This document shows, piece after piece, positions 27,001 through 33,000 of a stretch of DNA of 64,000 nucleotides. The position numbers were made by a program. This DNA comes from a virus (Duplodnaviria > Heunggongvirae > Uroviricota > Caudoviricetes): the IMG/VR virus record IMGVR_UViG_2880378312_000006; one strand, given 5' to 3'. Numbering within the stretch: the stretch's first letter is position 1; the number at the start of each line of letters is the position of its first letter.

Positions 27001-30000
27001 GAGATGATCGGGGCATCAGGATTTTTTCCCATGGTTTCAAGGTCGATCATTAGATGGTCACACGTCCTGCTGGTGGATGTGATAATGCGATGACCGTTCA
27101 CCGTAATTAAGGGATCTGCCGTCTCGCCAGTTTCACTATCGCTGGCGTGGTCCTGAGCGCTGCCAGCATTCTCCTTGTGTGGATGTTCAGCGCCTTCCAT
27201 TTTCTCCGAATCGTCTTCCTGAACTTCAACCAGGTTCTTGTCATCGAATGTTTCCTGGTATGTTGCGTCGCCCATCACCGCGCCACAATCAGGGCAGTTG
27301 CCGCCACTCCTCTGACCGCAGGCGGTGCAGATCTTTTCCGGTTCCTGTTGCACTACTGGTTCAGGTTGTTTCGTTTCTGGCTCGTTTTGTTGCGTATTTG
27401 GGCTGTTCTGTTCCGCTTTCTGGTCGTTCTGTTCCGTTTCTGGCTGATTCTGGTACACAGAATCGCGGGTCTGGATCCCCTTAATCCATTTCGGATCATT
27501 CGGGTCGCTAATCCCTTCAACAAATTCTCCGCGAGAGGCAGCCAGTAATTTGTCTGCATCGACAGGATTTTGGGGCGGAATGTTTTTCCGGGCTTCATGG
27601 AGTTCTGCCCGCAGTTTCTGATATTTCGCATCAACAGAATTTATCTGTGGCTGAGCATCCATCGACTGCGTGTCCTGATTATGTTCAGTTGTATCCGGTT
27701 CCACTGCTTCAGTCGTTGCCTGTTCATCTGCCATTGCGCCAGATGGCTGCGGTTTTTCTTCATCATCCTGTTTTCCTTCTTTTGTTACACGCTGCGGCAT
27801 TGGAGCAGAGGAGCGACCGCAGGCAATATCCACGATTTCTGGATCAGGGTTGGCATGGTCGGTTTCGGTCAGTACTTTGTTCAGATATTCGGTAACACGG
27901 TGGGGAGTAGCCTCGATACCAATTGGTGCTTCTTTCACGGACGCAACCACTATCGCGCGGGAATAATCCAGGTGACCAGGCATGGCGATGAATTTGTCAC
28001 GAAAAACAGAAAAGGGCGGCTTATTCTCTGAAACGATTTCTTCAATGCGTTTGGCGTGTGCCGGATGTGGATTGTAAATATCGATGTCCATTGAACGGGC
28101 CAGAACGCCAGCGGCAACGTCACGTTCCACTGACGCATCATCGTGGACAAAACCTTCACCGCGATCGGTAAGAATTCCTCCGCCAGCATTAGCGCCGGAT
28201 GGCGTGCGGCTGATGCGTAAAACACGATTTCCTTTCATCCACTCTTTTGTCAGCAGACCTCGATCGGTATAGTCAGCGTCCAGGTATGCTTCGAAAAAAG
28301 CAGTCATTAACCCCAGACTGGAATTAACGGGATTAGGGAAAACTTTGTCTGTGTCGCGTACCAGTTTGTGAAGGTCGCGAATCTCCAGCGGGTCGAGCAG
28401 CTTTGTGTTGTGGGAAATAGCCAGGGCAGTAACAGCAGGCAGTTCTTCAGCTCGTGCGATATGTAATGCCTGAAGTTCTTCCCGTGAAACGTGCGTTACC
28501 GGTTTTTCGCTGCCATGTTGCGCAAGCCAGCGAATGGGCAGTTCCTGACCGGAAATCGGCAGGAGCATATTATCCTCAATCTCAGCCATGTCTTCGCCAT
28601 TGACGTTGGTATTGTCAGTGCTGGCTGGTTTGTCCTGAACTGAGGGGGAAGGCGCTATAAATATCATTGTGATGCCATCTTCTCCGCCTTTTTCATAGCG
28701 GTTGCAGAATTCAGTATCGAACACACCTTCAGGCGGCAGGTCATTAACAATGGGCAAATTCACGCGAACAGGTTTTTTGAAATCCTCTTCGTCAAATCCA
28801 GCATCGTCCATTGCGACAACACCCCGTGATATTGCAACCGATAATTTTTTTGCTGTGCGCCAGTAAAAACCGCCTTTAATCCCAAGGCGTTTTCTGACTT
28901 TGTCATTTTTGGCTTCGTAATACAGTGCAATTTCTTCTTTATCAGTGCTCATTGATAAACCTCATAACTATTTTAAGGTTGTACGAATCCCTGCTATTGC
29001 TGGCATGCTTAATCAACGGGTATGGCGTTAATACGGCTGGCGGGTTATCCAGCCGGTATTTCGTTATTCAGGTACAGCGATACTTTGTTTAACGGGAGAC
29101 ATTCACCGGAAATTTTTTGCTCGTCTCTTGCCTGATGGCAGGATTCTTTACTGGCATAAATTCCGGTAATCACATTCTGTGGCTCACCTGTTATAAGAAA
29201 AACCGTCATCATCAGTGCAAACGCTGAACTCACTGCTGCCCTCCGAAAATGCCAAGTTCAAGAAGGGCAATTCTGGAGAGTATGGAATTATCATTGAGAA
29301 GATAAGGCTCATATTTTCTCATCCTGATGGCGTCTTCAGTAAACTCCCGGTTACTGAGCAGAATACCAATATTAAAACACCCTTCAGACGTATTAACGTT
29401 TGGTAGTGACGTTTCCATTATCGCGTCCTCAACAATGAATTTTGTGATGCGGTGCCTGGTGCCTCCAGGTGACGTTAACCAGTTAACAATTAACGCCGGA
29501 TACAGAGAATCCACCCATAACACTGTTTTTGGTTTTAACTGTTCCGCGTGCGCTCAGCCGCATTCACCACATCACAAAATTCACTTTAAAAAGGGCGGCA
29601 GAGCAGTCACGGAGTAAAACTGATACCGCCAAACGTCACCAGAAAATTGATAACAGAGGGCGTTGCAGCGGGGTTGTCACTTAAGCGTATGGTCAACCTG
29701 ACAACCCGGTGTCCTCAATGGGGAAGGAATAACCCCGCCATACTTACCGCCGCGCCATTTCGCGGAGTGCCACAACCGGAAGCGCACGTTCGAAGAAATC
29801 TAACGACAAGCCTTCTAAGGGAAAGAGCTTCGCCGTACGCTTTCGCGTTATGCACTGACTTTTCAGGGAAATATCCTTTCAGTAAACTGTCAGTACCGGA
29901 TTCTTATCCGTGTCCGGCGCACGACCACACGTGACAGCGTGTTGGTCTCCATTTTTAACCCAGAACCTCAATGGAGGATAAAATGCCAAACAAAAAAAGA

Positions 30001-33000
30001 AATCCGCTTATTGAAAAACAGATTGAATGCCTGGTAAATCAACTCAGGCAATCAGGGTTATTAAAAACTCATTCAGAGTTGAGGCTCACAGAATCAGCAT
30101 TCGACGATAAATTAAATAATGTCCTTTATAATGGCATTATTGATTTTAATCGTTCTGTTGGTCGCCGCGGCCCTGCTGGTGTTTCCTTATAATTACCAGT
30201 CAATCCAGAGTGGACCGTGTTCAGCGTAAATATAACTGTACACATCCAGATTATATTTGTGGTCTGTTAAGAACAGGCCGCAAATACATGCCGAAGCTTC
30301 CAGTGCAGCGGCTCTGTTACTGAATAACCATGTAGCAACATTCCAGCGTTTTTCTGCATCCCAGTCTTTCTCAAGGCCTGATACCATGAAGAAACCGTTA
30401 GTGTTGCCATCAAATAATTCTGTTTCCAAATTTTTAAGCAATGCCTGATGGACTCTTGCCAGGTATTCCGCCGGAATTTCGCCACGAATTCTGATGAGAT
30501 TGTCATAAACAAACATGTTCCCCGCATATGGCGATTTTTCTTTCTTGTTTTTTAAACCAGCATCATGAGCAAACTGATCAATTTCTTCTTCCGTTGGTTT
30601 CGTATTGATGTTTTGCGCTGTCGTTTCTGCAATTTTATTTGCCACACTCTCTGAGTCGTGTTTATTTATAGACGCACAGAAATACAATCCGGTAAACGCA
30701 TCGCGCACATTACGAGCCATATTATCAGTGTCTTTTTTCGTTACCGATTCCAATTCAAGTTCGTTCAGACGATGACGAAGTGTGTGTGCTGCAATCTCCT
30801 GGATTGAAGGAGGTAAATCTTTAAATTCCATCGTCAACCTCATCAGTCAGTGTTTCTGGCTAACCAGCGACGCGCGCCAGCTTCAGTTTTAAACGTTTTG
30901 CTTTTGGTATACGTCATCGCGGTGAACGTACCGTCCTGGTTGGGGAACACGCCACATACCAGAGATTCGTTGTTGCCAAGATTGAGCGTATCCATGTTGA
31001 CCTCATTTCCCCTTAACGCCGGGGTAGCGGAACAAAAACCTGCTGCATAGTTATTAAAGTTGAACCCTGCCGTCATGTTCTTACGCCTCGGGCTGGCTAC
31101 TTAACCCCTGACCACTGCCTGGTAACTCGAAGTATTGCCCTGCATTCTGTGGGGCGGGGTGAGGGAATGAATGAAGTTTAGAAAAACGAACATTTAAGGT
31201 CAATGTTTTTTTATCAAAACATTTTAAGCAGGCAGCTGTTACGCCATCACTACGATGGCATACAGTTAATCAAATAGATGAGGTTGGTTAAATATCTTGT
31301 TGAATTTTAAAGCATACTCCCAATATGCAAGATAGATCATCCAGCATAATTGAAGGGTAGCGAGGATTCGTGGGGACTAAAAGAATATCCGGCCCTTCTA
31401 TCTCCAGTTTGCGAATGACAGGCGTTGTGGTCCCTTTGGGTAAGGCAAGGACAATATTTCCTGGTTGTACGATTCGATCGGGATCAACAAAAACTGTTGA
31501 ACCATTTGGGATGGAAACTCCACCACCAGATGTCGACATACTGTCACTCTCTAGAACAACAGCAAAGGTATTGGCCGGGATTTCTCCGACAAGCTGCACA
31601 CAAGAGGTTATTGAGGAATTTTTCATATAATCACTCCAGCTTGCTGCCTGCTGAAGTGATAGTAGCGGAACCGTTTTTATCGGCGGTAAAGATAGATCAA
31701 GCGAATCACCTGTATTTAACTCTCCTCCATTAAGAAGCCAATTTTCGTTTACTTTCAATATCTTTGCCAGTGAACTTATGTAACGCGAGGACGGCGCTCC
31801 TCCACCGTTCATCCATTGACTTACGGAGCCTTTTGATGCGCCAGTGGCATTGACAAGGTCTTTGCCTTTCAAGTTTAGCGCATGCATACGTTGGGTTATG
31901 CGTTCAGATATTGTTTGCTTGTTCATGTTTTGATTTTAAAACACAGATGGTTTTGTTTCTTGACTTTCTTTGGTTTTGATTATTAAACTTTTGGCGTTCA
32001 GTTTTATGGAGCGACTCATGAAAAAATCAGAAGTATTAGGCTATTTTGGCGGAGTTGTTAAAACAGCCGCCGCTCTAGGAACGTCAAAAACCACAGTCAG
32101 CATGTGGGGGGAAGACGTTCCGTGGAAATGGGCGTTGCTAATTCAGGCAGTCACTGCCGGGGCGCTCAAATATGAGTTACACATACCGACGGTTGTCATT
32201 CCCGATTCTGATCATAATCCGCCTTCTAACCAAGGGGGGATTCATGAAAATCAAGCATGAACACATCCGCATGGCGATGAATGCCTGGGCGCGTCCTGAT
32301 GGCGAAAAAGTTCCGGCAGCTGGAATAACCCAGGCTTATTTTGAGTTGGGTATGACGTTTCCTGAACTGTACGACGACAGCCATCCGGAAGCCCTGGCTC
32401 GCAATACCCAGAAAATTTTCCGCTGGATAGAGAAAGACACCCCTGATGCAGTTGAAAAAATGCAGGCTCTGTTACCGGCGATCGAAAAGGCAATGCCGCC
32501 TCTGCTGGTGGCCCGTATGCGCAGTCACAGCTCTGAATATTACCGTGAGATCGTCGAACGGAGGGATCGGCTGGTGAAAGATGTGGATGATTTTGTCGCA
32601 GCGGCGATCGCCTGGGGCACCCTGACTAACAGTGGGGGTCAGCCTGGTAATGCTGTTGTCGTGCATTGACCAACAATATTCATGCCGGATTTCTTCCGGA
32701 TGTTCGAGGGTAAAGTTCGGTATCAGAAGAGGTGAGTATGGCTAATGCCTGGCTCAGATTGTGGCATGACATGCCAAATGACCCCAAGTGGCGAACGATT
32801 GCCAGGGTATCAGGACAGCCAATCGCAACAGTGATGGCAGTGTATATCCATCTTCTGGTGAGCGCGTCACGAAATGTCACGACATGTCACGGCGTGTCAC
32901 TACGTGGTCACATTGATGTCACGACGGAAGATTTAGCAAGTGCGCTTGATGTGACGGAAGACGTAATTGATTCAATTTTGCATGCAATGCAGGGGCGGGT

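Follow-up and report, generated by a model that had tools for sequence, protein, structure and literature searches.

A leftward early operon of an Escherichia coli O157:H7 lambdoid prophage, and two convergent genes without an assigned family within it, were analysed in a 64,000-nucleotide (nt) stretch of DNA (IMG/VR record IMGVR_UViG_2880378312_000006). This whole stretch is referred to as the window and positions are counted from its first letter; its segment 29500-31300 was 100% identical to many complete O157 genomes. On the minus strand, an open reading frame (ORF) at 30193-30843 encodes 216 amino acids (aa) from an upstream ATG. The start used by all homologues, by the Prokaryotic Genome Annotation Pipeline (PGAP) and by the PHROG profile is at 30831, where MEFKDL begins 7 nt downstream of a GAGG, and it results in a 212-aa early-operon protein termed ORF212 here (30193-30831, minus strand). 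Facing it is ORF69 (29983-30192, plus strand), a small basic protein of 69 aa with GGAGGA (29973-29978) in front of its start; if read from the in-frame ATG at 29971 it would have 73 aa. The two stop codons are adjacent (TAA/TTA, 30190-30195), and PGAP lists both products as hypothetical proteins (WP_000394548.1 and WP_001133037.1). A prior reading of the window made without database searches, hereafter the sequence-only reading, had described the 216-aa ORF and the GGAGGA-led plus-strand ORF with abutting stops, and both were found where it had placed them.

The order of genes is that of a Qin-type dicBF early-left operon. A cI-like repressor gene (31288-31926, minus strand), a 212-aa and apparently complete ORF with a helix-turn-helix (HTH) and an S24 peptidase, is followed by a candidate early-left promoter from the promoter scan (TTGACC, 17 nt, TAAACT; 31175-31203, minus strand) and a DUF1391/ydfA-like gene directly upstream of ORF212 (30843-31076, minus strand; Pfam DUF1391, E 1.2e-29; PGAP start 30995). 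After the two ORFs come the DicF small RNA (sRNA) on the same leftward transcript (29593-29644, minus strand; Rfam RF00039, 76.7 bits, threshold 48), DicB (29230-29418; Pfam DicB, E 3e-33; PGAP), a DUF1482/ydfD-like gene and an exonuclease; the DUF1391 gene, DicF, DicB and the DUF1482 gene have the order and strand of the Qin operon behind its repressor. The candidate promoter has the same position as dicBp of K-12 Qin, where the early genes dicF, dicB and ydfD are toxic and where RNase III and RNase E mature DicF from a polycistronic RNA (PMC10448788). Of the repressor ORF, PGAP annotates the C-terminal 112 aa only, as 'LexA family protein' in an identical O157 genome. The flanks named by the sequence-only reading, a ydfA-like gene on one side and DicF/DicB on the other, were thus confirmed by Pfam and Rfam, and its description of a discrete cargo module without family assignment in a repressor-controlled leftward early operon holds. 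A near-full-length match to 29800-30300, which covers the leader of ORF69, ORF69 and the 3' end of ORF212, was present in roughly 590 of 5,426 complete E. coli genomes (about 11%), so the arrangement is not due to chance. A 501-nt probe of leader plus ORF69 was matched in about 65% of complete E. coli genomes, mostly by its leader part only.

ORF69 is a genuine coding gene under purifying selection, as judged from the codon substitutions that separate its copies in E. coli lineages and Salmonella. The ratio of nonsynonymous to synonymous substitution rates (dN/dS) in its own frame was 0.15-0.27 at dS of 0.34-0.60, and in the other two sense frames it spanned 0.8-8.6 and was at least 1 in all comparisons except one; 33 of 64 variable columns fell at third codon positions. 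The convergent small ORF that had been proposed inside the early operon is accordingly a real gene by its in-frame constraint. Over its full length (69/69 positions) it matched phrog_4274, a family of function unknown, at E 1.2e-51. The protein is hydrophilic overall (grand average of hydropathy, GRAVY, -0.53; isoelectric point, pI, 9.7), contains no long hydrophobic stretch on reading of the sequence and retains the motifs IEKQIEC, SGLLK, SAF..KL and GRRGPAG..L. An AlphaFold2 (AF2) model (predicted local distance difference test, pLDDT, 58) places helices at residues 8-24 and 42-58, followed by a disordered GRRGPAG tail rich in arginine and glycine (RG-rich). An N-like antiterminator role, which was considered on account of the basic protein and the adjacent hairpins, was rejected because ORF69 is transcribed against the operon that would need antitermination. 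Codons 4-6 contain a run of seven A (29993-29999) that is reduced to six in about nine IMG/VR loci, truncating ORF69 to 17 aa, and that is interrupted in other lineages; the six-A variants could represent slip-strand on/off variation, decay or homopolymer sequencing error.

The same DNA had also been read as encoding a 32-aa hydrophobic peptide in another plus frame, resembling type I toxins. The ORF does exist at 30119-30229 on the plus strand (36 aa; the second ATG would give 32 aa) in the +1 frame with respect to ORF69, and its hydrophobic stretch has a mean Kyte-Doolittle value of 1.62, which is what speaks for the peptide of 32-36 aa as the active product of the locus. The toxin part of the proposal is unsupported since this frame shows no purifying selection (dN/dS 0.8-2.4) and the start codon is lost in Salmonella; moreover, the copy in enterotoxigenic E. 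coli (ETEC) has an internal premature stop and no Shine-Dalgarno (SD) sequence precedes the ORF. The hydrophobic run itself is an off-frame (+1) reading of the conserved GRRGPAG codons, and the peptide is by these comparisons a reading-frame artefact and not a gene. With this frame unconstrained and ORF69 hydrophilic, the locus lacks what a type I toxin-antitoxin (TA) system would need, a small, hydrophobic and conserved toxin read from a start codon of its own, and the explanation is effectively refuted. Nor was a known toxin or antitoxin RNA family recovered at the locus by an Rfam scan of 27000-33000 ranked by E-value, and NCBIfam and Pfam were empty. The Rfam scan returned DicF, a sub-threshold STnc100 and a chance-level ZEB2_AS1_2 (17.9 bits, E 0.95) only; the STnc100 match covers the DicF-to-dicB spacer (29386-29595, minus strand) at 38.4 bits (threshold 47; E 7.6e-06). 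Some 7 kb to the right, at 36854-37178 on the plus strand, the window does contain a genuine type I locus, a hok/sok system unrelated to the ORF212/ORF69 cassette; it consists of a sok RNA (36854-37028; Rfam RF01794, 113.5 bits) and a 51-aa Hok/Gef protein (37023-37178).

ORF212 is built from an N-domain, 'MEFKDLP...NMARNVRDAFTGLY' (about aa 1-60, nt 30652-30831), a linker, and an acidic, conserved alpha/beta C-domain (aa 98-212, nt 30196-30540; pI 4.9-5.0, against 5.2 for the whole protein). The full-length protein matched phrog_2151, function unknown, at E 1.9e-147 over 212/212 positions. Four more PHROGs, likewise of unknown function, were matched by its N-terminal 55-79 or so aa (three of the four within aa 5-57), and its first 50-60 or so residues recur in many small phage proteins. 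In an alignment of homologues the C-domain was nearly invariant while the N-part was a mosaic. The AF2 model (pLDDT 62.6) consists of an N-terminal helical region and a beta-alpha-beta-alpha-beta-beta domain, for which structure searches gave weak, generic ferredoxin-like matches. Residues of the C-domain that are invariant through the remote homologues are chiefly hydrophobic or structural, together with an FDGxxNGxF motif, and no catalytic signature was evident among them. Searches of ORF212, ORF69 and the alternative peptide against Pfam, NCBIfam and PADLOC gave nothing at or near family thresholds, and a PDB sequence search gave no match below E 0.1; type II TA protein families were likewise absent from these searches. 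As the sequence-only reading had held, the 216-aa protein has no assignable family, and the outcome which that reading had named as contrary to it, a known early-region protein, did not emerge from the profile and structure searches. The gene arrangement also differs from that of type II TA loci, in which co-directional genes form one autoregulated operon, as the two genes here are convergent and ORF212 lies within the early operon. An exhaustive phmmer search recovered enterobacterial relatives only. One of its hits, a 548-aa repetitive protein (P0169), was discarded as a low-complexity artefact, and homology to ydfB and ydfC, which occupy the slot in Qin, was rejected since their sequences are unrelated to ORF212 and ORF69.

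The two genes, both real and under selection, travel together. Of the full-length ORF212 homologues in 79 IMG/VR loci, nearly all had ORF69 downstream, and the stops abutted as in the window. A pair 70% and 77% identical at the amino-acid level, its TAATTA junction unchanged, occurs in Salmonella enterica; the element there is a different one, with P4-like ASH/Derepression genes besides an integrase and a Mu-type repressor. More remote homologues of the C-domain, about 30-35% identical, are P0179 (220 aa), P0195 (217 aa) and P0175 (286 aa). These carry a different N-domain and lie directly after a P2-type cox gene, next to cox/repressor genes; each faces a convergent ORF of 64-69 aa that is 46-54% identical to ORF69 with the motifs kept, and the 3' ends of these remote pairs overlap by 11-53 nt. 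Among E. coli copies with ORF212 at 69-73% identity, ORF69 was still 83-86% identical and the variation in ORF212 was concentrated in its N-part. As the N-part varies while the C-domain and ORF69 stay, the unit of inheritance and recombination is the C-domain plus ORF69. We therefore hold with high confidence that the C-domain of ORF212 and ORF69 are partners in a mobile two-gene cassette that moves between temperate phages of E. coli and Salmonella. In P0175 (L094, 4001-4861) an inserted HTH of XRE type separates the N-domain from the ORF212-like C-domain, a hint that the C-domain may cooperate with a DNA-binding module.

Such linkage could also arise if the genes were two functionally independent morons held together by their abutting 3' ends, with the conserved flanks (the DNA of the N-domain and the leader) serving as recombination joints. 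Lambdoid phages are well known to be mosaics joined at conserved boundary sequences, exchange between the two genes has no room where their 3' ends abut or overlap, and the genes do decay separately, the large one being truncated in one locus (L003) and the small one deleted in another (L082). Adjacency and convergence are nevertheless kept down to about 30-35% and 50% identity of the large and small proteins, on three element backbones with different flanks, N-domain and overlaps, and at least nine sequence types, unrelated to one another, show this two-gene design. We consider independent morons quite unlikely.

The partners contrast in charge. The pI of ORF69 is 9.7 compared to 4.9-5.0 for the C-domain it faces, and a remote pair has 9.4 and 4.6. 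Across ten pairs, a small sample, the pI of the small protein and that of the C-part of the large protein tended to be complementary, which we regard as suggestive. Complementary charge and the co-variation of the partners are the observations that bear on a neutralising complex of the two proteins. Complementary charges would also be consistent with a colicin-like toxin and immunity pair, in which ORF212 is a host-directed early effector with a harmful variable C-domain and ORF69 a constitutive opposite-strand immunity protein or antitoxin against leaky early expression. A conserved N-part and variable C-part with a co-varying small partner does resemble polymorphic toxin/immunity loci, and the immunity gene of pore-forming colicin operons is on the opposite strand with its own promoter. 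The invariant residues of the C-domain are mostly hydrophobic or structural, on the other hand, and no nuclease, toxin or other enzyme family was matched; several loci lose ORF69 while ORF212 remains intact; and an acidic large protein with a basic small one is the reverse of most type II TA pairs. The neighbouring dicF, dicB and ydfD are themselves toxic (PMC10448788), which fits a toxin in this position. On balance a colicin-like pair appears unlikely.

Each small ORF of this kind is preceded by about 90 nt that comprise two hairpins (H1 and H2), a CUCCAU element that can pair with the SD or the start codon, and GGAGGAUAAAAUG. In the window H1 (CCGGA...TCCGG, extendable to about 10 bp) spans 29896-29917 on the plus strand; it was seen in every cassette leader examined and its pattern matched at least 120 IMG/VR stretches (L096-L215). 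H2 (GACCACACG-loop-CGTGTTGGTC, 29923-29947, plus strand) differs between leaders by stem replacement, with at least five unrelated stem sequences at its position and the loop and inner stem inverted in some variants, a pattern that we read as compensatory evolution. The element that follows (29946-29985, plus strand) contains the SD (GGAGGA, 29973-29978), the ATG at 29983 and an anti-SD; in predicted folds UCUCCAU (29946-29952) pairs with AUGGAGG (29971-29977), or CAUUUU with AAAAUG. The start region GGAGGATAAAATG is common to three unrelated small ORFs. Folding was strand-specific: the RNA fold z-score of this leader was -3.5 on the plus strand versus -0.8 on the minus strand, and five leader classes gave -3.0 to -4.1 versus -0.2 to -1.9. 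Of the G.U wobble variants in H2, five fit the plus strand and two the minus strand, too few to decide the strand, for which the fold z-scores told more. No Rfam family covers the leader. A candidate sigma-70 promoter (TTTTCA, 17 nt, TAAACT; 29860-29888, plus strand) would start transcription just 5' of H1, and on reading of the sequences most leader classes have a -10-like hexamer that ends about 5-10 nt upstream of H1 in an otherwise unrelated upstream sequence.

A conserved leader that is structured on one strand suggests another explanation, namely that the plus-strand transcript is a cis-antisense RNA and convergent roadblock which gates read-through into dicF/dicB, the protein being secondary. 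Short antisense transcripts of this sort have precedents in lambda OOP/cII and P22 sar/ant. Over its entire length the ORF69 mRNA is complementary to the part of the early transcript that separates ORF212 from dicF, and K-12 keeps a leader downstream of ydfC without a small ORF. Maturation of DicF needs RNase III and RNase E (PMC10448788). What makes an RNA device improbable is the purifying selection on the amino acids, SD and ATG of ORF69, the retention of its motifs at about 50% identity where the DNA has strongly diverged, and the fact that a sibling protein, ECs1762 (see below), is detectable. The K-12 Qin leader (L002, 2597-2700) carries H1 and H2 and lies directly after ydfC, without a small ORF or MEFKDL gene, and in a Stx2a phage the leader comes after a MEFKDL-type gene with no small ORF following. 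We interpret both as deletion derivatives, in the case of Qin because phage PPompW has ydfC, a MEFKDL gene and a small ORF in this order, of which Qin retains only the leader after ydfC.

Scanning IMG/VR for the leader hairpin and pairing each downstream small ORF with the gene facing it revealed at least nine types of small ORF and large protein, ORF69/ORF212 included. Each cluster of small ORFs had its own C-region in the large protein, with the exception of two clusters that share one clustered C-region (bigC 2), which differs at its extreme C-terminus. The MEFKDL N-domain is present in almost all large proteins, and the two genes of a pair either abut at their 3' ends or overlap there, by 71 nt at most. 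The pair in the window has all features of the family: the MEFKDLP...RNVR.AF.GLY N-domain, the convergent small ORF, the H1/H2 leader and a GGAG SD. Further examples are ECs_1762/ECs_1763 of Sakai prophage Sp9 and cassettes of phage PPompW, BL21(DE3) and a second O157 prophage. The Salmonella element contains a second cassette: in this P4-like element (L006, 4979-5500) ORF200/ORF69 is followed in tandem by a 119-aa MELKDL protein with a 64-aa ORF, each with its own leader copy and with a DicF-upstream-like segment afterwards. The 64-aa type of small ORF showed in-frame constraint too, on few substitutions. All small and large cassette proteins fall in PHROGs of unknown function.

The Sakai Sp9 cassette occupies the same slot, between the ydfC-like ECs_1764 and DicF/DicB, and has the same type of H1/H2 leader; a 135-aa protein with the MEFKDL N-domain on the operon strand faces a convergent basic ORF of 77 aa with a 23-nt overlap. 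Neither its small ORF nor the C-region of its large protein is related by sequence to ORF69 or the ORF212 C-domain. ECs1762 was significantly enriched in the total-RNA-associated proteome of enterohaemorrhagic E. coli (EHEC) Sakai as measured by mass spectrometry, in cultures grown in virulence-inducing medium and described without prophage-inducing treatment; epitope-tagged ECs1762 expressed from pBAD24 in Sakai gave a 32P polynucleotide kinase (PNK) signal of UV-crosslinked RNA above background (PMC7618764). It was published as one RNA-binding candidate, and cassette and partner are not described there (PMC7618764). By the proteome and crosslinking results, at least one small ORF of such cassettes is translated without need of prophage induction, and its product contacts RNA. 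At ompW, Sakai has Sp9 only and no tandem prophage. In L001, 1-1542 (window about 23500-25040), a C-terminal fragment of OmpW, an IS3 remnant and an NleG (DUF1076) effector gene come before the integrase, which points to a second, tandem prophage at ompW in this lineage of O157. Literature searches returned nothing on the cassette of the window, and HnrS has a late-region location and is unrelated to it.

These observations led us to a tentative model, plausible but short of probable, in which ORF69 is an RNA-acting protein expressed from its own leader and ORF212 its cognate neutraliser, the pair serving either in exclusion with self-immunity or in gating of dicF/dicB. ORF212 would be an immediate-early gene of the repressor-controlled leftward operon, composed of a swappable N-module and a family-specific acidic C-domain. 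As ORF69 has its own expression signals, it is expected to be made independently of the early operon, in the lysogen included, from the structured leader and strong SD. By analogy with ECs1762, and given its RG-rich tail, ORF69 probably binds RNA; in the lysogen it might act on RNA such that incoming phages are excluded, or silence leaky read-through into dicF-dicB-ydfD. Upon derepression ORF212 would be made and its acidic C-domain would bind and neutralise its own ORF69. The early transcript, which has to cross all of ORF69 in antisense on its way to dicF/dicB, would at the same time stop ORF69 synthesis through collision and RNA duplex formation. If the pairs are cognate in this way, phage-phage competition or prophage self-control would have a further layer, new and diversifying, placed just upstream of the toxic dicF/dicB, and the model would provide a genetic context for ECs1762, an orphan RNA-binding protein of EHEC.

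Several observations weigh against this model. ORF69 is broken by the A7-to-A6 slip, a deletion or a frameshift in about 10 of the 78 loci from which the region could be extracted, and most disrupted loci (at least six A6 loci, L082 and L007) keep ORF212 intact. ORF69 is therefore dispensable in those lysogens, which speaks against an antidote that the lysogen cannot do without. Near-clonal O157 genomes are the source of many of the loci, and the counts are therefore not independent; many of the disrupted loci may be clonal. Co-inheritance could stem partly from abutting or overlapping genes that leave no room for recombination. The ORF69 promoter remains a candidate because the consensus scan reported no good sigma-70 site upstream of the leader, and the -10 assignments are post hoc. 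RNA binding by ORF69 is an analogy, as ECs1762 is not homologous to it. Finally, no family of PADLOC-DB v2 reached E<=1 with ORF212, with ORF69 or with the alternative peptide, and a significant fold match was absent, both AF2 models being of low confidence (62.6 and 58.4).

A broader generalisation of the model is possible, though we consider it doubtful. The cassettes would make up a class of prophage systems that is polymorphic, with nine or more sequence types. In each, a small RNA-binding protein, made from a structured leader independently of the early operon and also in the lysogen, would be paired with a cognate immediate-early neutraliser on a shared N-module through an obligatory convergent 3' overlap. 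As part of the same claim, the class would function as an RNA-level exclusion/self-immunity switch or toxic-gene gate and diversify by cassette exchange among lambdoid, P2-like and P4-like elements.

By the features compared with known systems, the cassette falls outside type I TA, type II TA, SieB and all PADLOC systems. Whether it constitutes a distinct new class is a matter on which we lean to the negative. Its genomic context has the backbone of K-12 Qin (ydfA-ydfB-ydfC-dicF-dicB-ydfD), which shares the repressor, promoter, DUF1391 gene, hairpin leader, DicF, DicB and the DUF1482/ydfD-like gene; in Qin the slot is occupied by the unrelated ydfB and ydfC, both cassette genes are missing and a leader remnant only is left. 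Pore-forming colicin operons contain a large gene under SOS/LexA-type repression with a variable C-terminal effector domain, and a convergent small cognate gene with its own promoter. They are alike in that a repressor-controlled large gene with a variable C-domain faces a small cognate gene, and differ in having no sequence or fold similarity to the cassette and in their immunity proteins, which are membrane proteins whereas ORF69 is soluble and basic. In lambda OOP/cII and P22 sar/ant a short convergent transcript inside the early operon is complementary to its 3' part and is non-coding, unlike the antisense transcript of the cassette which encodes a conserved protein behind a long structured 5' leader.

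For exclusion cargo in this slot there is a precedent in Rac, where sieB follows a DUF1391 gene directly and in convergent orientation. According to the Rac annotation, sieB is an opposite-strand gene in a repressed early-left operon, directly after the DUF1391 gene ydaF (which it overlaps by 4 nt with its own 3' end) and upstream of an sRNA and a division inhibitor (kilS, kilR); the same layout of an opposite-strand gene after a DUF1391 gene in an early-left operon is present in the window. The function of sieB is superinfection exclusion with phage self-immunity, the lambda/P22 sieB-esc concept. SieB, at 162 aa, has no similarity to ORF69, no co-varying partner faces sieB in Rac, and neither a Pfam/PHROG relation to SieB nor membrane-protein character was found for the hydrophilic ORF69. 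The idea of the sequence-only reading that the arrangement is one of toxin-antitoxin or exclusion cargo thus has a precedent in sieB with respect to exclusion, a role that the cassette may have, and fails with respect to classical type I and type II TA systems. By analogy, the arrangement resembles the opposite-strand exclusion/immunity genes and the cis-antisense control of temperate phages.

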